Part shown: positions 22,034 through 60,894 of the stretch, one piece after another
How the letters are laid out: each line of letters starts with the position of its first letter
Numbering within the stretch: position 1 is the stretch's first letter
DNA from: Methanocellales archaeon
GTDB lineage: Archaea > Halobacteriota > UBA148
DNA: 64,000 bases
Reading direction: 5' to 3'
NCBI GenBank assembly: GCA_028715985.1
Contig: JAQUQR010000001.1
Coordinates: 125,927-189,926, forward strand
Position numbers and translations under genes: made by a program
The notes under the pieces: generated by a model
Databases searched by the model: none
Seen by the model: the letters and a program-made list of their open reading frames with translations, nothing else
Told to the model about the DNA's origin: nothing

Positions 22034-22136
22034 CGGTATTATCCTATTTTTGTATTACTTGAAATTATGGCAACAAAAACTTTTATCCTCTTACTGTTAA
22101 GTATCTACTGTCGCTCTTTTACTGAGGTGAAATGAT

Positions 22137-23327
22137 ATGTCAAATCCTAGGCTCGAAATAGCGAAGAAGCACATATTTTCAACTGGTTTAGAGGATATAG
22201 GCTCTTCACTCTGCAGGGAAAACATGAAATATGGAATTGCGAAGATTCACTGGATACAAGAACAATTGGGTATGGAGTCTAACGCTATCTTTCTCTCAGG
22301 TCCAGATGAAACTGTCACCAAGAACAAAATGAGATGGACCAATGGTTTTGGTTATGGGGGCAAGATCTCGTGGGGTGATGGGACCTCTAAGGCAATAATC
22401 TTGGATGTGATGCCGAATGCCTGCGGTATGCTTGTCGGAGGCATGGATGAACTGCCACAGCCTGGCAGTCTCATAGAGCGAATCAATGATATAGAGACCA
22501 AGGAATCATATATCGATGATGTCCAAGTAAAATGGGATTTTAGTCAAAGCAACCATTTTATTGATGTATTCAAGGTCGTAAGATTAGCCGACATAGATTT
22601 TCCTGATTATGCGTTTATTATCCATAGTGGGGCGCCAGAATTAAAGGGCGACAATGTTAAGGGATTTGGGCTTTATGTTCATAAAAGTGAGATACTAAGT
22701 GAAATGGCAGAGACGATAGAAACACCATTTGGAAGGTCAAACGTAATTCTCGATAATGATGCGACAGAATATTTACGCTTCTTTCATTTTGCAGATAATT
22801 TTTCCAAGAAAAAGAGAAGGTTAGCAGCAAAAATGTTATTTGAAGATTTTGAGGAGATATCAAATCCATTACATCAGGGGTTATTGAACTATAATGAGAT
22901 TATTTTGGGCTCACATTACATAAAAGACGAGAGAGGGTCCCTGTTCCCCATAGCCCTGAGAGCAGATCTGCCCGCATATTTGATAAAGGGCAAAGAGAAT
23001 CTCTCTGATGAAATGATTGAAATTCTAGGTTTTTCCAAGAGGGCGAAAACTTTGGGCGTTTATTCATCTTTAAAAAATGCGAATATTTTACCCCATGGAG
23101 GAGGATATACGTTTAGAGACCTGCTCACGGTGACAAATGTAATTGAAGTAAAAGGTGAGAGATACTTTGAGGTTGAGATGCACAATGCTATAGGGCATAA
23201 AATATTTAGTAATCCCAAAGACATCGAGTTTATTTATAGGGGTAGGGAAGTCGTGATTAAAACACTTGAATTAGGTCTTGGAGAACTGGCAGCAAGACTT
23301 ATACCCGAATATGTGTTAAAAGTTTAA
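22137..23327 (+). CDS. Divergent RtcB-family paralog (RtcB-like protein).
   Basis: Shares the metal-ligand motif series with the bona fide RtcB at 59449: GFGYG...DVMPNACG, SNHF, IHSG, SHY and PHGGG. It is shorter, at 396 aa. Confidence 0.5.
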   Translation: MSNPRLEIAKKHIFSTGLEDIGSSLCRENMKYGIAKIHWIQEQLGMESNAIFLSGPDETVTKNKMRWTNGFGYGGKISWGDGTSKAIILDVMPNACGMLVGGMDELPQPGSLIERINDIETKESYIDDVQVKWDFSQSNHFIDVFKVVRLADIDFPDYAFIIHSGAPELKGDNVKGFGLYVHKSEILSEMAETIETPFGRSNVILDNDATEYLRFFHFADNFSKKKRRLAAKMLFEDFEEISNPLHQGLLNYNEIILGSHYIKDERGSLFPIALRADLPAYLIKGKENLSDEMIEILGFSKRAKTLGVYSSLKNANILPHGGGYTFRDLLTVTNVIEVKGERYFEVEMHNAIGHKIFSNPKDIEFIYRGREVVIKTLELGLGELAARLIPEYVLKV

Positions 23328-24304
23328 TATGTGCGAGTAATCATGTAATCTGCCAACTCCATTAATAACTCCTTTGCAGTGGAATCTGGCAACACATCCA
23401 ACTTGGATTTCCCCTGTTCCACTAATTCAAATGCCTTCTCCATCGCATAATCGATTGATCCAACATCAATTAATTGTTGAACTGCATCGTCGATCTCTTC
23501 TCTGGAAGAGTCTCTGCTAAGTGCATCCAATTTAACGCCTTTTGTGAGCGCATGGATCATTATCAATGTCTTTTTTCCTTCCATAAGGTCATTACCTCTC
23601 CTTTTTCCAAGTCGCACTTCTGGTGTGATCAAATCTAACACATCATCACGTATTTGAAATCCAACTCCAATTGTGCTTTCTGCTTGCCATAATGCGTCCG
23701 CGATCTCAGGGGTTGCACCACCGAACAAGCTGCCAATCATGGCAGATGTTGCAAATAGGACGCTTGTCTTCTTTTGGACCATCTTGAGGTATTCGCCCTC
23801 ACTAACAGAGCTTCGTTTCGCGAGTTCCATATCCATCCATTGACCTTCACAAATATCCGTACATGTTTTCGAGAGAATGCACAGACAGCGTTTTACTATC
23901 TTTGGCGGAGCATCGACGTTTGTTATGATCTCGAATGCCTTCGAATAGAGCGTATTTCCTGCTAGTATCGCTGCTGGCAATCCCCATTTTACATGAACTG
24001 TTGGATTGCCTCTTCGTATTTCGTCTTGGTCCATGATATCGTCGTGAATAAGCGTGAAATTATGAATGAGCTCTATGGAAACTGCTGCAGGAAGGACTTT
24101 TTTTACGTCACCACCGACCGACTCAGCTGCTAGCATCAACATCGCAGGACGAATTCGTTTGCCTCCGGCGTCAACTAAATATCGAGCTGCTTGATAAAGC
24201 CCCTCAGGATGGATGATGGGCAATAGTTGCCCTATGGCCTCATCTACCATCTTCCCCCTTTTTTTGATTTCATCGAGTATATGCATGAACATCACCTGAG
24301 ACAA
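23324..24304 (-). CDS. idsA: Geranylgeranyl diphosphate synthase (polyprenyl synthetase).
   Basis: LIHDDIMD and DDxxD motifs. Confidence 0.8.
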   Translation of the reverse strand: MSQVMFMHILDEIKKRGKMVDEAIGQLLPIIHPEGLYQAARYLVDAGGKRIRPAMLMLAAESVGGDVKKVLPAAVSIELIHNFTLIHDDIMDQDEIRRGNPTVHVKWGLPAAILAGNTLYSKAFEIITNVDAPPKIVKRCLCILSKTCTDICEGQWMDMELAKRSSVSEGEYLKMVQKKTSVLFATSAMIGSLFGGATPEIADALWQAESTIGVGFQIRDDVLDLITPEVRLGKRRGNDLMEGKKTLIMIHALTKGVKLDALSRDSSREEIDDAVQQLIDVGSIDYAMEKAFELVEQGKSKLDVLPDSTAKELLMELADYMITRTY

Positions 24305-25632
24305 AGCTCTTGTCCATTGCGTAAAACATGCACGGTATCTCCTAATACGTAGCCCGCCTCTTCCGCCAATTCTGCATATGCTGAAGTCATACTAAGTTCT
24401 CCATGGGAAGGTATGACTTGTTCGGGATTGACCATTCTGAGTAACTCCCAGTGATCCTCTCTGGATGCATGTCCAGAAACGTGCACGTCATCATATATCC
24501 TAACGCCTTTCATTTGTAGCTTGGTCTCGATAATATATCTGTTAGCGGCACTAAGTGGATTTGGTATCACGTTCGCTGAGAATATGACCTTATCTCCCCT
24601 CTCGATCTCATAGGGGGTTGAATCATTCGCTATTCTGGAGAGGACAGCACCGGGCTCTCCTTGGTGCCCAGTCAGGATCATCAAGTATTCCTCCTTGCCC
24701 TCTGTCATGACCCTTTTAAGAGCTTTGTCGATCGATCTTCTGCTCCCACGCACCTCTGCAGAGAAATCAATGTATCCTAACCGCTTTGCAGCTTCAGAAT
24801 ACCTTTCCATGGATCTGCCAAGTAATATTGGGCGTCTTCCCATTTTATTGGCTGCTTCAACTATCGTTTTGATTCGTGCGATATGTGATGAGAACGTCGT
24901 TACAAGCACACCTGATTTTGTTTCTTCAGTGCCTACCAGCACATCAGTGACCAAATCACGCGCGATCTGCTCCGATGGAGTCTTGCCAGACCGCTGAACA
25001 TTGGTGCTCTCGGCGATCATGGCAACTACGCCCTCCTTCCCCAAACTTTTTAACCGATCAAAGTCGGGCGCATCTCCGAGAACAGGCGTTCTATCGAGCT
25101 TAAAGTCGTTGGCATATAGGATTATTCCCTGTGGGGTGTGGATCGCAGCAAATACGCAATCGATTATGCTATGCTGTCCTCCAATAAACTCGACCGAAAT
25201 ATCCTCTGTGATGGGGTAAGTCTCACCGGCATTTAGTATGCGCAGTTCATTTTCCACACCGAACTTCATCTCTGAGGAGATCTCTTGTGATATTAGTTCC
25301 ATTGTGAAAGGCGTGCTTATGATGGGGGCACTATATCGATGCGCTAGTTTTGGGATCGCACCTATGTGGTCCAAATGGCCATGTGTGCAGACAATAGCTT
25401 TGACGGTGCCCTCGATATTATTCATTATCGTATCATCTGGTATGGCGCCCGCCCTGATAAGGTCTAATGAGTGCATTTTTTCCGTCTCCGCATCTTCATG
25501 AATTTGAACCCTGTCAAGGCGAAGGCCCATATCCATTATTACTATTTCCTTTCCATACCGTATCGCAGTCATGTTTCTTCCAACTTCGTCATATCCTCCG
25601 ACTGCAATTATCCCTATATCTGTATCTGTCAT
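24292..25632 (-). CDS. Archaeal RNase J (metallo-beta-lactamase / beta-CASP ribonuclease).
   Basis: HxHxDH motif (THGHLDHIG), about 446 aa, conserved position inside the mevalonate gene cluster. Confidence 0.8.
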   Translation of the reverse strand: MTDTDIGIIAVGGYDEVGRNMTAIRYGKEIVIMDMGLRLDRVQIHEDAETEKMHSLDLIRAGAIPDDTIMNNIEGTVKAIVCTHGHLDHIGAIPKLAHRYSAPIISTPFTMELISQEISSEMKFGVENELRILNAGETYPITEDISVEFIGGQHSIIDCVFAAIHTPQGIILYANDFKLDRTPVLGDAPDFDRLKSLGKEGVVAMIAESTNVQRSGKTPSEQIARDLVTDVLVGTEETKSGVLVTTFSSHIARIKTIVEAANKMGRRPILLGRSMERYSEAAKRLGYIDFSAEVRGSRRSIDKALKRVMTEGKEEYLMILTGHQGEPGAVLSRIANDSTPYEIERGDKVIFSANVIPNPLSAANRYIIETKLQMKGVRIYDDVHVSGHASREDHWELLRMVNPEQVIPSHGELSMTSAYAELAEEAGYVLGDTVHVLRNGQELCLR

Positions 25633-26741
25633 CTTGAAAACCTCGCCGTATCAAATCCTCTTTGTTCTAGATACTCCCTCGTCTCACCCGTTATGATGAG
25701 TTGAGCGTTGCCTAAATCTTCTATGAAAGGACAACCCGTTAGAAACATCGCTACCCTCAGCTCCTCTGTCATCCTTTTAAGTACATCAACTACCTCTTGC
25801 CTACCTTTCAGGGCAGGCCCCACCAAGGGCAGTGCAACCCCACAAAGAGAGGCTCCAAGAGTAATACACTTTGCCATGTGTATACCATTGCGTATGCCAC
25901 CAGTTGCAATGATCGGAACGCCAACAGATGATTCGACGATGCTGATGGCTGTGGGAATGCCCCAGTTCCAGAACAATTTGCCCAGATGTTCTGATATTTT
26001 ATCTCCTTCTGCCCTTGCTCGATAGGCCTCTACACCTGCCCAGGAAGTACCTCCAAGCCCTCCAACGTCTATCGCAGCAGCACCCGCCTCTTTTAATGCT
26101 ACTGCAACGGCATGTGATATTCCCGCACCAGTCTCTTTTACTATCACCGGGACGCTAACTTCATCGCATATTGCACGAATCGCTTTAATGCAATTTCTGG
26201 CATCAACCTCCCCTTCTGGTTGAATTGCCTCCTGCAAAAAGTTCAGGTGAACTGATAAGGCATCTGCATCGATCATTTCTATCGCTCGTTCGATCTCGCT
26301 TATGCCATATTCCTTCAGCTGGGCGGCACCTATATTTGCGTAGATGAATGCATTTGGCGCGATATCTCTGACGACACGAAACGAATCCTCTTGCTTGGGA
26401 TCCTCTAAAGCTGCCCTTTGGCTGCCCACCCCTATACCAATACCAAGCTCCTCTGCCGCTCCTGCTAGTGCCTCATTCACATTCTTTGTTTCAGGATGCC
26501 CGCCTGTCATGGATGCGATCATAATAGGCGCTTTAAAATGCTTGCCAAGAAAGACGGTGCTTAGGTCAATTTTTTCCATGTGAATCTCCGGTAACGCCTT
26601 ATTGACTAACATAATATCCTCAAATCCACTAGGGGATGATTCAACATCCTTCTCTGCACAAAGCCGCAGATGTTCGATCTTTCTGCTAGGTATGTCCAGA
26701 TCAATCACCTCTAATAATGGTACCGAAATTTCTTTCACCAC
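25629..26741 (-). CDS. fni: Isopentenyl-diphosphate delta-isomerase type 2 (FMN-dependent).
   Basis: TIM-barrel FMN-binding IDI-2 family, located in the mevalonate operon. Confidence 0.8.
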   Translation of the reverse strand: MVKEISVPLLEVIDLDIPSRKIEHLRLCAEKDVESSPSGFEDIMLVNKALPEIHMEKIDLSTVFLGKHFKAPIMIASMTGGHPETKNVNEALAGAAEELGIGIGVGSQRAALEDPKQEDSFRVVRDIAPNAFIYANIGAAQLKEYGISEIERAIEMIDADALSVHLNFLQEAIQPEGEVDARNCIKAIRAICDEVSVPVIVKETGAGISHAVAVALKEAGAAAIDVGGLGGTSWAGVEAYRARAEGDKISEHLGKLFWNWGIPTAISIVESSVGVPIIATGGIRNGIHMAKCITLGASLCGVALPLVGPALKGRQEVVDVLKRMTEELRVAMFLTGCPFIEDLGNAQLIITGETREYLEQRGFDTARFSR

Positions 26742-27465
26742 TTAAGAAATTCATGACAAGACCTTTTTTTGATGCATTAAATACGTGAGATGAGACCCCC
26801 TCTTCTGCCAGTTTAAACAACTCATTTGCCTTGGATGCCATGCCCCCAGTGACATCCACATCCTTGGATCCCTTTAGTAATTTTTTAACGCCGCAAAACT
26901 CTTCCGGAGTGATAACATCCATGACTTTCGTACCCTCCATTATCCCGTCAACATTGGTTCCAATGCCTACTCTCTCTGCATTTAAGCACTTGGCGACATG
27001 GGCGACTATTTGGTCGCCAGACAGTATTGCCCTCCCCCAAATCCTGTCCATTACCACATCGCCATGAAATACCGGGACTAGGTCATTTTTTAACATTAAT
27101 CTGATCTGATCTGTCATCATATTTTCTAACCGTCCCTCTCGAGAGATTGTACAGTTTAATGGGTGAACGGGCACAACAAGCATTCCATTCTCGGCCAATT
27201 TTTCGATGAACACTCTATTGAGTTCTTTTACTATATTATGAATAAGTATGGTCTCATAACCACATTTTCCGGGTACATCCAAGTCAAATCTCTTGGCTTG
27301 TGGATGCCCGAACGAGCCGGCGCCATGCACTATGATCAAGTCTCTTACATCAGCGGAGGCAATCTCTTTTGCAATTCTATTAATCTCTCCCAATTTAAGG
27401 GTTCTCTCTTTACTCCTATCAGTCAGGACGCTTCCACCGATCTTTAGTATCGTAACCTCACTCAT
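26701..27465 (-). CDS. ipk: Isopentenyl phosphate kinase.
   Basis: Amino-acid kinase fold with KIGGS N-terminal motif, adjacent to mvk. Confidence 0.8.
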   Translation of the reverse strand: MSEVTILKIGGSVLTDRSKERTLKLGEINRIAKEIASADVRDLIIVHGAGSFGHPQAKRFDLDVPGKCGYETILIHNIVKELNRVFIEKLAENGMLVVPVHPLNCTISREGRLENMMTDQIRLMLKNDLVPVFHGDVVMDRIWGRAILSGDQIVAHVAKCLNAERVGIGTNVDGIMEGTKVMDVITPEEFCGVKKLLKGSKDVDVTGGMASKANELFKLAEEGVSSHVFNASKKGLVMNFLSGERNFGTIIRGD

Positions 27466-28327
27466 GTATTACACCTGTTTCTGTTACCCTTGTATGGATT
27501 GCCATTCCACCAACGCTTTCTATGGCAGATGCGACCTCCCCCATTTTATCAAAGTCGACAAGTGCCACCATACACCCTCCCTTGCCAGCACCGGTTATCT
27601 TTGCGCCGAGAGCACCAGCTTTTCTCGCAGCATATATTTGTGCAGACAACTCAGGGCAACCCACGCCTAAGGATTCGAGCAAACCTTGATTTATATCCAT
27701 CAACTCGCCAACGTTCTTATAATCACGCTCATTTACTAAATACTCGCCCTTTCTTGCTAATTCTCCAATTGTGTGGAATATGGGCAGAATTATGGCGGGA
27801 TGCTTGTCCTTAAGTTGAGCCACCTGGGCTACGACCTCTTTTGTTGAGGAGGATAGACCCGTGTTTCCGATTACTATCCCGCAGTCCAAGCTGTTCAGTC
27901 TCCTACCAGCTGGCACAAAAAAGACACCGCCCATCGTAGAGACGAACGTGTCAGTCAAGCTTGCAGCGCCCTGTACTTCCCTTTCAACTTGGTGCCCTAA
28001 TTGTGCTATCTCCTCTTTGCTCAAACCGACGCCGAACTCCATATTTAGTGCAAACAAAGTTGCAATTGTAACAGCAGCAGAGGACCCCAGCCCAGATCCA
28101 ACGGGAATGTCAGAATGGATGTCTATGGTTACACTTTCAAATTCCACCAGATCAGAAATCTTTTTTACAGCTCCGGCTACATAAGGGCTAGTTATCTTGG
28201 ACTTTTCTCCTTCTTGAACCCTAACGCGGGTTCTCAGATCTATGGCACACGCGATAGCAGGCTCCCCGTAGACAACGGCATGTTCACCGCATAAGAATAT
28301 TTTTCCAGGTGCAGAACAAATAGCCAT
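27458..28327 (-). CDS. mvk: Mevalonate kinase.
   Basis: GHMP kinase motifs, including PxGSGLGSSAA. Confidence 0.8.
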   Translation of the reverse strand: MAICSAPGKIFLCGEHAVVYGEPAIACAIDLRTRVRVQEGEKSKITSPYVAGAVKKISDLVEFESVTIDIHSDIPVGSGLGSSAAVTIATLFALNMEFGVGLSKEEIAQLGHQVEREVQGAASLTDTFVSTMGGVFFVPAGRRLNSLDCGIVIGNTGLSSSTKEVVAQVAQLKDKHPAIILPIFHTIGELARKGEYLVNERDYKNVGELMDINQGLLESLGVGCPELSAQIYAARKAGALGAKITGAGKGGCMVALVDFDKMGEVASAIESVGGMAIHTRVTETGVIHE

Positions 28328-57581: not shown

Positions 57582-59372
57582 TCATAACGAATACCTATGT
57601 CGACTTCTATATTCCTCTTGCTTGCCGGGGTTCCACTGGGCTGTGCGCCCGAAGTATCCCGTAACTCTGGATATGTGTGTCACTATACTCCCACCACATG
57701 TTTGGCAACGCTCTTTTTTGCCTCTGGACACGTGGTTATTCTCACACACGCTGAAATCCGGCGAGAAACAGAAATAAGCTAACTTTGTTTCTGATAATTT
57801 TTTGACGATCTCATTTAGGCCAGTTGGATCTGGATGACTTTCACCCATCCAAATATGGCACATGGTTCCACCAGTAAAATATGGGTGAAACTCCGCCTCT
57901 ATGGATACCTTGTCAATTAGAGAGACGTCTGAAGAATAGGGGACATGTGTGCTGTTAGTGTAATACGCTCCATCGCCAGTCCCTTGGACGTTTGCCTTGG
58001 GAAACTTGGACCTATCGATCATAGCAAGTCGATGCGCAGCCGATTCGGCAGGCGTTTGCTCAAAGGTATATGTCACGCCATCTTTTTCAGAATAGTTTTT
58101 GATCTGCTCATGCATGTGTTTAATCATCCTCAGCCCAAACTTGTAGCCATCCTTTGATATGATGGGCTCATGGATCAGATTCAGCAGACATTCATTCAGC
58201 CCGACCATCCCAAATGTCAGTCTTCTTTGCTCAAAATCATAGTACGGCTGCCCTTCTTTAGTCACCATCTTCAGCCACGGCAGGATCTGCCACTCGTCCA
58301 ATGACCTCTTTATGATCCTATTGCTCTGAATTAATCCCACTCTAGCGATCTCCATTTTATCCTCTAGTAACTCAAAAAAACCAGACTCATCCTTGCTTTC
58401 GAGGGCAATTCGCGGAAGATTCAATGTGATCACCTTGTTTGAGCCCGTACCCATCCCTCCTGCCGACCATACGCCTCCGGAGTGAGTGACGAGAAGCCTG
58501 CAACACATGGCCTGAACAAAATTTTCTTTAAGATAATCTGTTGTTAGGTTTAAAAAATAGGGTGCACCTGTGCTGGCTGTGGCCTTCATCGTAGCTGTCC
58601 ATAGCGGATCATTTCTATCCAGGTCTGAGGTGATAGCTGTGGTCACTAATGGGAAGGTAAAGGGAGCGCCATCTGCGTCTCCCTCGCTAAGCACTTCCAT
58701 TATTGCTTGGTATATCATGCGTGCCTCGTCCTCAAAGTCTGCATACGTATCCTCCAACCTATGACCAGCCCATATTGCCTTCTCCCACTCAAGGTAGGGT
58801 GGACATCTGACGCGAAGCCCAAGATTTGTAAAAGCACTTTGGGATCCAATGCGGTTAGACTGGTTCATCTGAAATATGAAGCCTTGTAAGGTCTGCTTCA
58901 CCTGCTTGTAATCCAGATGATCATGGGAAAGGTGGGGTGCAAGCAACCAATTGAAGATATCTATGGCTTGGGCTCCTGCAAAAAACTGCTGAGAATGAAA
59001 CAGGTACGCCATGGTGTGGTATACGGCTGTATCAAATTTTTTGGCTGGATGACTCCTAGCGTCTGGGAATCGTAGTCCATCTAGCAGGAATATGCGGGCA
59101 TCGTGCCCGGCACAGTATGGAACAAGAGGACTATGCAGATCGTGGATATGGATATAGCCGCCCCTGTGAGCTTGCGAAACTTGCTTGGAATAAAGCCTCT
59201 TCAATGCATATGCTTTTTTCACTTGCGAGGTCACATACAAGTCTATCAGGGATGGGCTGATCCTGGTGTTTGAGTTTTCCTTCAGCAACCAACTGCTACG
59301 CTCAAGAACGTCGTCCACCAATCCCATTAGACCTTTATCCAGTTGATCCGTCTCATCTGACATCTTGGGCAT
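57582..59372 (-). CDS. nrdD: Anaerobic ribonucleoside-triphosphate reductase (class III RNR).
   Basis: C-terminal CxxC..C zinc site and RVTGYF glycyl-radical motif, 596 aa. Confidence 0.8.
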   Translation of the reverse strand: MPKMSDETDQLDKGLMGLVDDVLERSSWLLKENSNTRISPSLIDLYVTSQVKKAYALKRLYSKQVSQAHRGGYIHIHDLHSPLVPYCAGHDARIFLLDGLRFPDARSHPAKKFDTAVYHTMAYLFHSQQFFAGAQAIDIFNWLLAPHLSHDHLDYKQVKQTLQGFIFQMNQSNRIGSQSAFTNLGLRVRCPPYLEWEKAIWAGHRLEDTYADFEDEARMIYQAIMEVLSEGDADGAPFTFPLVTTAITSDLDRNDPLWTATMKATASTGAPYFLNLTTDYLKENFVQAMCCRLLVTHSGGVWSAGGMGTGSNKVITLNLPRIALESKDESGFFELLEDKMEIARVGLIQSNRIIKRSLDEWQILPWLKMVTKEGQPYYDFEQRRLTFGMVGLNECLLNLIHEPIISKDGYKFGLRMIKHMHEQIKNYSEKDGVTYTFEQTPAESAAHRLAMIDRSKFPKANVQGTGDGAYYTNSTHVPYSSDVSLIDKVSIEAEFHPYFTGGTMCHIWMGESHPDPTGLNEIVKKLSETKLAYFCFSPDFSVCENNHVSRGKKERCQTCGGSIVTHISRVTGYFGRTAQWNPGKQEEYRSRHRYSL

Positions 59373-59448: not shown

Positions 59449-60894
59449 TTGAAAGAGAATTTGGAAAAGCTTGGAGATTGTCTGTGGGAATTGCCTCAGG
59501 GCACCGTTAAAGGAATGAATGTACCAGCATGGATTTTCTTATCAGATAAATTGTTAGCGCATGTCGAGGAGGGTGCAGTAGTGCAGGCTGCAAATGTTGC
59601 CTGCCTACCGGGAATATACAAGCATTCTATTGCACTGCCGGATATGCATTTCGGTTATGGTTTCCCCATAGGAGGTGTTGCCGCCTTGGATGCCCAAAGC
59701 GGGGGCCTTTCTCCAGGTGGAATTGGCTTTGACATCAACTGTGGCGTTCGCCTGCTAAGAACAGATTTAACATCTGATGCATTGAAACCGGTGATGAAGT
59801 CTTTAATAGCGGAGATATTCAATAATGTGCCCTCAGGCGTTGGCAAGGGTGGAAAGGTCAAATTTTCGACGCGAGAGATTTGCGAAGCGATTGAGATGGG
59901 CGCTGGGTGGGCAGTGGAAGAGGGCTATGGGACTGAGAGGGACCTAGAGCATTTGGAAGAAAAGGGTTGTATGGACTCAGCTAAATCAGAGAAGGCATCA
60001 TCCAAGGCTATTCAAAGGGGTGAGCCCCAGCTTGGCTCCTTGGGAGCGGGAAATCATTTTTTGGAGGTCCAGAGGGTGGATAAAATATACCAGCCGGATA
60101 TTGCAAAGGCCTTTGGCATCTCTCACGAAGATCAGGTTTGTGTGATGATTCATACTGGATCCAGGGGTTTTGGACATCAAGTTTGCACCGATTATCTTCG
60201 GATATTGGAGATGAAGTTTAGAAATGAAATATCAAAGCTACCTGATCGCGAATTGGTGTATGCCCCTGCTGGAACCAATGAATTTGATGATTATTTTGCA
60301 GCTATGAGTTGTGCAGCGAATTTTGCCTGGTGTAATCGACAGATGATAACTCACTGGGTGAGGGAAGGCATAGCTAAGGTTCTGGGCATATCACCGGACG
60401 AGCTTGATCTTAACATCATATACGACGTCGCACATAACATCGGTAAATTAGAGAAACATGTGATAGATGGCGAGCAGACCGAAGTCGTCGTGCACAGGAA
60501 GGGGGCAACTCGGTGTCTAGGTCCTGGTGCAGCAGACATACCAAAGGATTATCGCGATGTGGGCCAGCCCGTGCTGGTTCCAGGAGACATGGGCTCTGCT
60601 AGCTACGTTTTAGTAGGGACAAAACTGGCTGAAAAGGAGACCTTTTCTTCCGTCTGCCATGGAGCAGGGCGTATCATGTCGAGACATAGTGCGGTGAAAA
60701 AATTCAGGGGAGAAGACATAAAGGCGAATTTGGAAAGCAGGAACATATTCGTACGGTCCGCCAGCTTGAAGATTTTAGCAGAAGAAGCGCCCGACGTATA
60801 TAAAGACATCAATGAGGTCGTTAGGGTTTGTGAAGTAGCTGGCATAAGCAAGACGGTTGCCAAATTAGTGCCAATGGGTGTGATGAAGGGATGA
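59449..60894 (+). CDS. rtcB: RNA-splicing ligase RtcB.
   Basis: DINCG, GAGNHF, HTGSRGFGHQ, HNIG and CHGAGR metal-ligand motifs, 481 aa. Confidence 0.9.
   Translation: MKENLEKLGDCLWELPQGTVKGMNVPAWIFLSDKLLAHVEEGAVVQAANVACLPGIYKHSIALPDMHFGYGFPIGGVAALDAQSGGLSPGGIGFDINCGVRLLRTDLTSDALKPVMKSLIAEIFNNVPSGVGKGGKVKFSTREICEAIEMGAGWAVEEGYGTERDLEHLEEKGCMDSAKSEKASSKAIQRGEPQLGSLGAGNHFLEVQRVDKIYQPDIAKAFGISHEDQVCVMIHTGSRGFGHQVCTDYLRILEMKFRNEISKLPDRELVYAPAGTNEFDDYFAAMSCAANFAWCNRQMITHWVREGIAKVLGISPDELDLNIIYDVAHNIGKLEKHVIDGEQTEVVVHRKGATRCLGPGAADIPKDYRDVGQPVLVPGDMGSASYVLVGTKLAEKETFSSVCHGAGRIMSRHSAVKKFRGEDIKANLESRNIFVRSASLKILAEEAPDVYKDINEVVRVCEVAGISKTVAKLVPMGVMKG

Follow-up and report, generated by a model that had tools for sequence, protein, structure and literature searches.

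A divergent family of RtcB-like proteins, missed by annotation, in archaea and bacteria and its recurrent HD phosphohydrolase neighbour

Introduction

To our knowledge, RtcB enzymes are the sole known family to join 3'-phosphate to 5'-OH ends by way of a GMP-activated phosphate; as a rule they are regarded as one easily recognised family. A stretch of 64,000 nucleotides from a Methanocellales archaeon (the window) encodes a canonical RtcB and a shorter protein of 396 aa, in which the initial annotation had noticed a series of RtcB-like motifs. Is this second protein related to RtcB at all and, if so, does it act on the same ends?

Results

The RtcB-like gene and its setting

The open reading frame of the RtcB-like gene runs exactly from 22137 to 23327 on the + strand and encodes 396 aa, as initially delimited. 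A putative ribosome-binding site, GAGGTGA, was recognised by eye at 22124..22130 (+), with the ATG 6 nt further on; it lies in the 103-bp intergenic region from which gltX and the RtcB-like gene diverge. At its other end, the stop codon of the gene overlaps the 3' end of the convergent idsA. The order L7Ae-gltX / RtcB-like gene / idsA-RNaseJ-IDI2-IPK-MVK is kept in three related genomes, and dN/dS for the RtcB-like gene is 0.07-0.09. The gene is real and constrained, and is seated in conserved synteny among housekeeping genes. PADLOC defence-system models did not match the 396-aa protein and a search of 2.9 million viral contigs returned zero relatives of it, on which grounds a mobile-element or defence origin was rejected; together with the gene order shared by the three genomes, these results support the original view that the context is not a mobile one. 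The gene at 59449..60894 (+), identified from the outset as a bona fide RtcB, was confirmed as such by PF01139 (E 2.4e-170) and by its match to P. horikoshii RtcB (E 5e-176), and was used as a comparator from outside the new family. The RtcB-like protein is indeed 85 aa shorter than this canonical enzyme.

Kinship with RtcB

An HMM search with PF01139 had been proposed as a check on RtcB homology. Scans of the 396-aa protein with Pfam and NCBIfam returned nothing, even at E <= 10, and PF01139 gave weak sub-threshold matches in four of 33 relatives (best E 0.046). Searches of PDB sequences with phmmer and with the family profile (hmmsearch) gave chance matches alone, to NiFeSe hydrogenase and LpxA, and the profile did not reach the RtcB entries; BLASTP against the RtcB of the window found a marginal C-terminal match (E 0.12). 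The relationship to RtcB is therefore visible only by structure and profile-profile comparison. The second proposed check, structure prediction, gave an AlphaFold2 model with the RtcB fold (pLDDT 93.3, pTM 0.91), and the best 15 Foldseek matches were all RtcB, the next match having E 0.07. HHalign of a 121-sequence family profile against an 8-sequence RtcB profile gave a probability of 97.05% (E 7.8e-11) over 345 columns, a significance reached only once distant family members had joined the alignment, as a shallow 33-sequence profile gave a probability of 1.5% only. The failed Pfam and NCBIfam scans, the BLASTP value and the result with the shallow profile are what would be expected if the motif resemblance were coincidental and the protein unrelated to RtcB; the Foldseek matches to the RtcB fold and the 121-sequence HHalign comparison refute this explanation, whose probability we put close to nil. 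The 396-aa protein has the RtcB fold, as judged from the predicted model, and the homology originally claimed for it is supported over those 345 columns, with most catalytic residues kept.

A retained catalytic centre with altered surroundings

Residue correspondences to RtcB rest on HHalign, and conservation counts are out of 121 family members. In RtcB, metal M1 is bound by Cys98, His234 and His329, and metal M2 by Asp95, Cys98 and His203 (PMC9745838). Asn202 contacts GTP and the 5'-OH, Glu206 contacts guanine N1/N2, Asn330 the gamma-phosphate and Lys480 guanine O6, and His404 accepts GMP.

In the alignment, the M1 ligands are all matched. C96 (116/121), in P93-N94-A-C96-G97 (22413..22427, +), stands for the metal-bridging Cys98; H163 (121/121), which opens H163-S-G-A-P167-E168-L-K170 (22623..22646, +), stands for His234; and H246 (121/121), in H246-Q247-G248 (22872..22880, +), stands for His329, so that H246-Q247 is the counterpart of H329-N330. 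Two of the M2 ligands, Cys98 (C96) and His203 (H140), are also kept, but the third, Asp95, aligns with Asn94, a position that holds Asn in 110 and Asp in six of the 121 members; either Asn94 or the nearby D90, which is variable within the family, may be a metal ligand instead. H140 (121/121) belongs to N139-H140-F141-I142-D143 (22551..22565, +), equivalent to RtcB N202-H203-F204-L205-E206, in which N139 (117) and F141 (119) are nearly invariant. The nucleophile His404 in its H-G-x-G motif is matched by H320 (121/121) in P319-H320-G-G-G-Y324 (23091..23108, +; P319 120, G323 119, Y324 97), and the segment from Y367-R368 to K395 (23235..23321, +) corresponds to RtcB Y451-K452...K480, with R368 in 111 members and K or R at position 395 in 80 and 14, respectively. 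Towards the N terminus, P56-D57...G70-F-G-Y-G-G75 (22302..22361, +) corresponds to RtcB P64-D65-x-H67-x-G-Y-G (D57 115/121, R66 108/121, G74 119/121); T59 aligns with H67, and a 10-aa family-specific insertion between P56-D57 and GFGYG bears the conserved R62, N63, R66 and W67.

Among the GTP-contact positions, N139, Q247 (89/121) and K/R395 (94/121) are kept. Glu206 is replaced by D143, which is conserved in the core clade only and varies in the wider family, and Ser385 of the guanosine loop is replaced by Ala280; because of these two changes the specificity for GTP is uncertain. The positions that hold the polynucleotide strands in RtcB are altered. Arg238 of RtcB contacts the 5'-OH strand, its E. 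coli equivalent mattering 200-fold for sealing, and Arg190/Gln194 also contact it (PMC8051266). The alignment places P167 at the Arg238 position and shows the Arg190/Gln194 segment to be largely deleted; Arg350/Lys351, Arg408 and Arg412 have no conservation in register, Tyr324 standing at the Arg408 position. The conserved elements found instead are specific to the family: the R62-N63-x-x-R66-W67 loop, E168-x-K/R170 (E168 97/121, K/R170 110/121), Y324 and an inserted helical segment E295...R302. From its place two residues beyond E168, K/R170 might compensate for Arg238.

The strings on which the initial annotation had relied were all found in the protein: GFGYG (70-74), DVMPNACG (90-97), SNHF (138-141), IHSG (162-165), SHY (259-261) and PHGGG (319-323). 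Four of its five motif equivalences hold by conservation and by the full-length profile-profile alignment, namely PNACG with DINCG, NHF(I)D with NHF(L)E, IHSG with HTGS and PHGGG with CHGAG. The fifth, SHY with HNIG, is wrong: H260 is not conserved, the true counterpart being the H246-Q247 of LHQG. The metal-ligand series is not retained in full, Asp95 being the exception.

Compared with RtcB of PF01139 (P. horikoshii PH1602, E. coli RtcB, human RTCB), the order of catalytic motifs is the same and their spacing nearly so (74 and 75 residues for H246 to H320 to K395, 75 and 76 for H329 to H404 to K480). Common to both are the Cys that bridges the metals, three His that bind them, the nucleophilic His of P/C-H-G-x-G, Asn-His-Phe-x-acidic, Tyr-basic and the C-terminal Lys. 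The RtcB-like protein is nevertheless only ~12-17% identical to RtcB and escapes both PF01139 and the NCBIfam RtcB models; it lacks much of RtcB 107-190, and its alignment is weak in the N-terminal region.

An old and scattered family

The RtcB-like protein has 796 homologues with E <= 1e-3. The family is small: among 1.84 billion representatives just 339 relatives turned up (339 clusters at 50% identity), and the family was traced in at least 323 of the 185,579 species genomes. Its occurrence is scattered among Bathyarchaeia, Asgard, DPANN, Methanocellales and anaerobic bacteria, many of them uncultured; the hosts are sediment archaea and bacteria. Every copy found bears the label "hypothetical protein", and the literature searched held no prior description of such an RtcB-like family. 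The family is an old lineage of its own within the RtcB superfamily, far diverged and not annotated before. The term paralog, initially applied to the gene, is right in that the protein is related to RtcB and wrong if it implies that the gene arose within this lineage by duplication of the RtcB gene nearby: archaeal and bacterial members are ~55% identical to each other.

An HD phosphohydrolase as recurrent neighbour

In 35 of 82 loci, from bacteria and archaea, the RtcB-like gene is adjoined on the same strand by a gene for a YpgQ/YedJ-like HD phosphohydrolase; the partner is missing from the other 47, and it was not found in the 64-kb window by tblastn or HMM searches. It may lie on either side, with gaps of -7 to ~110 bp in most loci. 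HD proteins account for 33 of the 103 immediate same-strand neighbours at these 82 loci, the next family for at most four. Pairwise divergences of the RtcB-like and HD proteins are correlated (Mantel r 0.68, 0/2000 permutations). PF01966 matches the partner with E 1e-11 to 1e-17, and the 33 neighbours with E down to 5e-17; resemblance to the structural-genomics HD proteins 3djb, 2pq7, 5dqv (YpgQ) and 3gw7 (YedJ) has E of only 1e-7 to 1e-4, and the partner falls below all NCBIfam equivalog cut-offs. It bears the H...HD...H...H...D pattern (conserved H35, H66-D67, H79, H111 and D131), which is diagnostic of a dinuclear site; YpgQ itself is an Mn-dependent (d)NTP pyrophosphohydrolase (PMC8177086).

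Archease, RtcA, RtcR, PrfH and Pnkp/Hen1 are absent from the top 25 families matched by the 103 same-strand neighbours. An Endonuclease Q homologue (E 1e-59 to 5zb8) is encoded directly downstream in four loci, and double calcineurin-type phosphoesterases occur at five. One of the 150 representatives listed, P0136, is an APH-type kinase fused to an RtcB-like domain, and this single locus lies within a radical-SAM / aminotransferase / SDR / HAD cluster. HAD phosphatases also adjoin P0131. In Planctomycetota, the RtcB-like gene is preceded by TetR and DksA/TraR-type genes. Further recurrent neighbours include pyruvate kinase (DPANN), ETF (Aerophobetes/Clostridia), and VIT1 with a 125-aa protein (Odinarchaeia). 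These last three sets, and TetR with DksA, recur at five loci or fewer each; they were attributed to lineage-specific synteny and rejected as functional partners.

Discussion

The catalytic centre is kept almost whole and the gene is often paired with that of a phosphohydrolase; the protein therefore probably acts on phosphate-ended molecules other than the usual RtcB substrates. As the strand-holding residues are out of register and Asn stands in for the M2 Asp, the substrate should differ from that of the tRNA-splicing RtcB 37 kb away, and the preferred metal or nucleotide may differ as well. We favour, with some reserve, the prediction that the RtcB-like protein depends on an NTP and on metal, passes through a His-nucleotide adduct and ligates phosphate ends of a substrate different from that of RtcB. 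Two divalent metal ions and GTP, or another NTP, would give a covalent His320-NMP adduct; the NMP would be handed from His320 to the terminal phosphate of the substrate; and attack by a hydroxyl would form the phosphodiester and release NMP. Our best guess for the HD partner is that it would trim or hydrolyse phosphate or pyrophosphate ends, the two proteins acting as a heal-and-seal pair on damaged RNA or DNA 3'-phosphate ends. The link to nucleic acids is drawn from the Endonuclease Q genes in four loci, the calcineurin-type phosphoesterases in five and the activity of RtcB itself on DNA 3'-phosphate ends (PMC8051266).

The APH-kinase fusion in a biosynthetic-type cluster points instead to a small-molecule substrate. 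The protein could be a nucleotidyl transferase or phosphodiester synthase that places GMP on a small phosphorylated molecule or nucleotide, with the HD protein as the matching hydrolase. Possible products are a GDP-linked intermediate, a cofactor or lipid head group joined through a phosphodiester, and a dinucleoside polyphosphate signal. What guanylylation requires seems to be in place, yet the polynucleotide-binding arginines are out of register and an acidic residue, E168, appears, while the HD partner is of the YpgQ type, that of NTP pyrophosphohydrolases; the gene content around P0136, the HAD phosphatases beside P0131 and the TetR and DksA/TraR-type genes of Planctomycetota would also fit. 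F420 (CofC/CofD) and cobalamin (CobU/CobS) synthesis offer a precedent for GTP-driven phosphodiester formation: a phosphate monoester and GTP give X-pp-G, from which hydroxyl attack releases GMP, and CobU also forms a His-GMP adduct. However, these folds are unrelated to that of the RtcB-like protein and genes of such pathways are not linked to the main clade, where no biosynthetic neighbourhood recurs among the 82 loci; the fusion is a single case among the representatives listed. Conserved basic residues (R62, R66, K/R170, R227, R275, R302, R342 and R368) could bind nucleic acid, as the Endonuclease Q linkage would also suggest, and the family occurs in DPANN archaea, whose biosynthetic capacity is reduced. 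We regard a small acceptor as rather unlikely, though well worth keeping in mind.

The shared fold and catalytic residues, and Asn139 as counterpart of the RtcB residue that contacts the 5'-OH, would equally suit a redundant or back-up tRNA/RNA-splicing ligase that joins canonical substrates (2',3'>P or 3'-P with 5'-OH RNA). This is improbable: the window already encodes a canonical RtcB, Arg238 is not conserved in register and the Arg190/Gln194 segment is largely deleted, archease and RtcA are not associated with the family among the 103 neighbours of 82 loci, and the family is far rarer than a core tRNA-splicing enzyme would be. Loss of the Asp95 ligand and of the RtcB-invariant H67, R238, R350/K351, R408 and R412 might be taken to indicate a catalytically dead protein of binding or regulatory function, for which we see very little chance, since the family keeps four His in every one of 121 members and, almost as strictly, the Cys, Asn and Phe of the catalytic positions, which is unexpected in a dead enzyme; dN/dS is low, and Asn can still act as a metal ligand.

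An NTP-dependent enzyme with a substrate of its own would have parallels among specialised RtcB paralogues. E. coli RtcB2-PrfH is described as repairing ribosomes, and Myxococcus xanthus is reported to have RtcB1-3, of which RtcB3 caps 5'-phosphates (PMC9304027, PMC13166195). These paralogues are a precedent for diversification of substrates on the RtcB fold with dedicated partner genes; they are described as members of the RtcB family, whereas the RtcB-like protein is recognised neither by PF01139 nor by the NCBIfam RtcB models. Maughan & Shuman 2015 is reportedly a further source on such paralogues. The partner differs as well, being an HD phosphohydrolase and not archease, RtcA or PrfH; it is likened to the YpgQ/YedJ type on the basis of other genomes, since the window lacks it. 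Tentatively, the RtcB-like and HD genes could form a two-gene system, not recognised before, that has passed between archaea and bacteria of anaerobic habitats and carries His-GMP chemistry beyond RNA splicing ends, either to the sealing or capping of DNA 3'-phosphate breaks or to the synthesis of a dinucleoside-polyphosphate signal or a small molecule linked to GMP, which the HD protein would hydrolyse.

The RtcB-like gene reveals a second branch of RtcB that annotation misses, in which the residues that define the chemistry are kept, those that bind the substrate are remodelled and the HD protein is a new partner. The map of conserved residues offers testable mutants (H320A, C96A and N94D). 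Once defined, the substrate would either add to the known reactions of nucleic-acid repair or place RtcB-type chemistry beyond RNA metabolism, and several hundred protein clusters would gain a name.

A constrained gene encodes an RtcB-like protein

The gene at 22137..23327 (+) encodes 396 aa, exactly as in the initial annotation, which had described the product as a divergent RtcB paralog; the five motif strings quoted there were all present in the protein. It starts with ATG and carries GAGGTGA 6 nt 5' of this codon. The gene at 59449..60894, which served as comparator, encodes a canonical RtcB (PF01139, E 2.4e-170; P. horikoshii RtcB, E 5e-176). The reported context, between GluRS and isoprenoid genes, was also correct: L7Ae and GluRS genes lie upstream in divergent orientation, and genes for polyprenyl synthase, RNase J, type-2 IPP isomerase, isopentenyl-phosphate kinase and mevalonate kinase lie downstream in convergent orientation. 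This order is conserved in three related Methanocellales/Halobacteriota genomes, where the RtcB-like protein is 84-90% identical, a conservation equal to that of its housekeeping neighbours. The dN/dS is 0.07-0.09; the gene is real and strongly constrained.

The isoprenoid cluster occupies 23324-28327 (-) in the order MVK - IPK - IDI2 - idsA, and the RNase J (beta-CASP) gene sits between IDI2 and idsA; related genomes L003 and L005 keep this placement, and L004 stops inside the gene for RNase J. By eye, a 596-aa ORF (57582-59372, -) that diverges from the canonical RtcB gene looks NrdD-like, a putative anaerobic ribonucleotide reductase.

Structure and deep profiles connect the family to RtcB

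The protein matched no Pfam or NCBIfam family even at E <= 10, so that the PF01139 HMM search proposed with the paralog claim returned nothing. PDB sequence searches gave no relevant match, BLASTP against the window's RtcB found a C-terminal match only (E 0.12), and a family profile run against 1.84 billion cluster representatives recovered 339 relatives only and did not reach canonical RtcB. Structure prediction and profile comparison, also put forward initially, both supported the homology. AlphaFold2, given 33 family members, produced a confident model (pLDDT 93.3, pTM 0.91). In Foldseek the best 15 PDB matches of this model were RtcB without exception, at probability 1.00 and E 3.5e-7 to 1.5e-5; the following match had an E of 0.07. 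Distant members from the 1.84-billion-representative search were then added to the family alignment, and the resulting set of 121 sequences was compared by HHalign with a profile of the window RtcB, E. coli RtcB and six phage or virus RtcBs. The two proteins aligned end to end over 345 columns (probability 97.05%, E 7.8e-11). With the shallow 33-sequence profile the probability was only 1.5%, which explains why the family has stayed unannotated; adding distant members alone (Neff 2.5 to 6.3) raised it to 97%. The paralog finding was essentially right and worth pursuing.

Most catalytic residues are kept and residues of the substrate surface differ

Residues were mapped onto P. horikoshii RtcB from the HHalign alignment, with conservation counted over the 121 sequences and RtcB residue roles taken from PMC9745838 and PMC8051266. 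The counterpart of the metal-bridging Cys98 is C96 (116/121). The M1 ligands His234 and His329 correspond to H163 and H246 and the M2 ligand His203 to H140, all three in 121/121; the other M2 ligand, Asp95, corresponds to N94 (Asn in 110/121, Asp in 6/121). The GMP-accepting nucleophile His404 is H320 (121/121), and Asn202, which contacts the GTP bridging oxygen and the 5'-OH, is N139 (117/121). Among the other GTP contacts, Glu206 (guanine N1/N2) is D143, conserved in the core clade only, Asn330 (gamma-phosphate) is Q247 (89/121) and Lys480 (guanine O6) is K395 (K or R in 94/121). Two elements invariant in the RtcB alignment, Phe204 and Tyr451-Lys452, are F141 (119/121) and Y367-R368 (R368 in 111/121). 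The spacing is also close, with 74 and 75 residues for H246 to H320 to K395 and 75 and 76 for H329 to H404 to K480. The initial motif series therefore stood for C96, H140, H163 and H320, which align with RtcB ligands or the nucleophile, and failed for SHY; this string, considered as the counterpart of H329-N330, is unconserved and was rejected in favour of L-H246-Q-G.

Other positions depart from RtcB. His67 is replaced by Thr59, Ser385 by Ala280, Arg408 by Tyr324 and Arg412 by Asp328. In RtcB, Arg238 holds the 5'-OH strand by its first two phosphates (PMC8051266); here this position is Pro167, after which come Glu168, which is near-invariant, and K/R170, which is conserved. The Arg190/Gln194 segment is largely deleted and Arg350/Lys351 are not kept in register. 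Specific to the family are 10 residues inserted behind the PD motif (conserved R62, N63, R66, W67), a conserved G176-x-G-L-Y180 and, ahead of the nucleophile, an inserted helical segment (conserved E295, G298, F299, R302). The protein demonstrably combines the RtcB fold with strictly conserved metal-binding and nucleophile residues; judged from its sequence, the nucleotidylation machinery appears intact and the substrate-holding surface rebuilt.

A patchy family with an HD-domain partner

The family is small, with 796 clusters at 90% identity (E <= 1e-3) and 339 at 50% identity; among 185,579 species genomes, pattern-based scanning detected members in at least 323. All carriers are uncultured MAGs or SAGs, from Bathyarchaeia, Asgard (Odin, Thor, Hel, Loki, Jord), DPANN (Woese-/Nanoarchaeota) and Methanocellales among archaea and from Planctomycetota, Spirochaetota, Anaerolineae, Desulfobacteria, Aerophobetes, Clostridia and others among bacteria. 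No member was found in 2.9 million viral contigs or among PADLOC models. Archaeal and bacterial members are ~50-58% identical, which suggests horizontal spread with tight constraint. Three MAGs carry two copies on different contigs (L007/L012, L040/L041, L008/L059); in a Pirellulales MAG copy L040 has an HD neighbour and L041 has none.

ORFs were called in 82 loci and neighbours clustered. A ~215-aa HD-domain protein adjoins the RtcB-like gene on the same strand, on either side, in 35 of the 82 loci and in both domains; the gap usually lies between -7 and about 110 bp. It accounts for 33 of 103 immediate same-strand neighbours, every other family for at most 4, and is the sole robust genomic association in these loci. 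Pairwise divergences of the two proteins are correlated (Mantel r 0.68, 0/2000 permutations), shared phylogeny contributing. The partner shows an H...HD...H...H...D pattern and resembles the YpgQ/YedJ group, YpgQ being a Mn-dependent (d)NTP pyrophosphohydrolase (PMC8177086). Its gene was not found within the 64-kb window.

Rarer neighbours include a homologue of Endonuclease Q (P. furiosus EndoQ, 5zb8, E 1e-59; no Pfam match) directly downstream in four loci of Aerophobetes and Clostridia MAGs (L053:9175-10413, L056:3089-4321, L058:1702-2618, L074:9180-10418), with the order ETF - HD - RtcB-like - EndoQ in L053, L056 and L074. A protein of 450-550 aa that carries two calcineurin-like metallophosphoesterase domains adjoins the HD/RtcB-like pair in five loci (L017, L018, L020, L024, L046; e.g. 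L017:10060-11412) of Bathyarchaeota, Asgard and Deferrimicrobium MAGs. In the relative P0136 (L090:8001-10232; 743 aa), an APH-family kinase (PF01636) is fused to the RtcB-like domain; its surroundings, with two radical-SAM genes and genes for an aminotransferase, an SDR and HAD hydrolases, resemble a cluster for the biosynthesis of a small molecule. Archease, RtcA, PrfH and Pnkp/Hen1 were not seen among the top 25 families matched by the 103 same-strand neighbours from the 82 loci.

Downstream of the module, a Helarchaeota MAG (L024:9219-10601) and an Ardenticatenales MAG (L069:10554-11921) encode an unannotated protein of ~455 aa; the latter copy has no Pfam match and only weakly resembles glutathione synthetase, an ATP-grasp enzyme. 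Across the 82 loci, three neighbours matched PF14397 (sugar-transfer ATP-grasp). In Odinarchaeia, a VIT1-family membrane protein is encoded upstream (L002, L021, L023) and a conserved 125-136-aa protein with a C-terminal Cys downstream (L002:11343-11720, L019:9243-9620, L021:9242-9652, L023:9232-9609).

Possible function

By homology with RtcB, a His320-NMP adduct would form with two metal ions, the NMP would pass to a terminal phosphate and a hydroxyl group would attack; genomic context suggests that the HD phosphohydrolase may cooperate by preparing or hydrolysing phosphate or pyrophosphate ends. We lean, by a modest degree, towards nucleic-acid end repair apart from tRNA splicing. Our reasons are that the genome also has a canonical RtcB, that DNA 3'-phosphates are already within the reach of RtcB chemistry, and that EndoQ and phosphoesterase genes occur as neighbours. 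In the main competing possibility, which we consider rather unlikely, the enzyme would act on a nucleotide or another small phosphorylated acceptor; the loss of strand-binding arginines, the near-invariant Glu168, the fusion to a kinase within a cluster that looks biosynthetic and a partner of NTP-pyrophosphohydrolase type speak for it. That the protein is a redundant tRNA ligase alongside the canonical RtcB is improbable, that it is a pseudoenzyme despite its conserved catalytic residues more improbable still, and a coincidental resemblance to RtcB has a negligible chance.

The protein resembles RtcB in a chemical core that probably works alike, and differs in failing curated family HMM definitions and in missing several RtcB-invariant residues; for the latter two reasons we file the family outside PF01139. 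Our literature search found no earlier description, though the family may have been mentioned before. Remote homology can stay hidden when a highly conserved family has a shallow alignment. Within the RtcB superfamily we treat this family as a branch of its own, which had escaped annotation and has a different partner.
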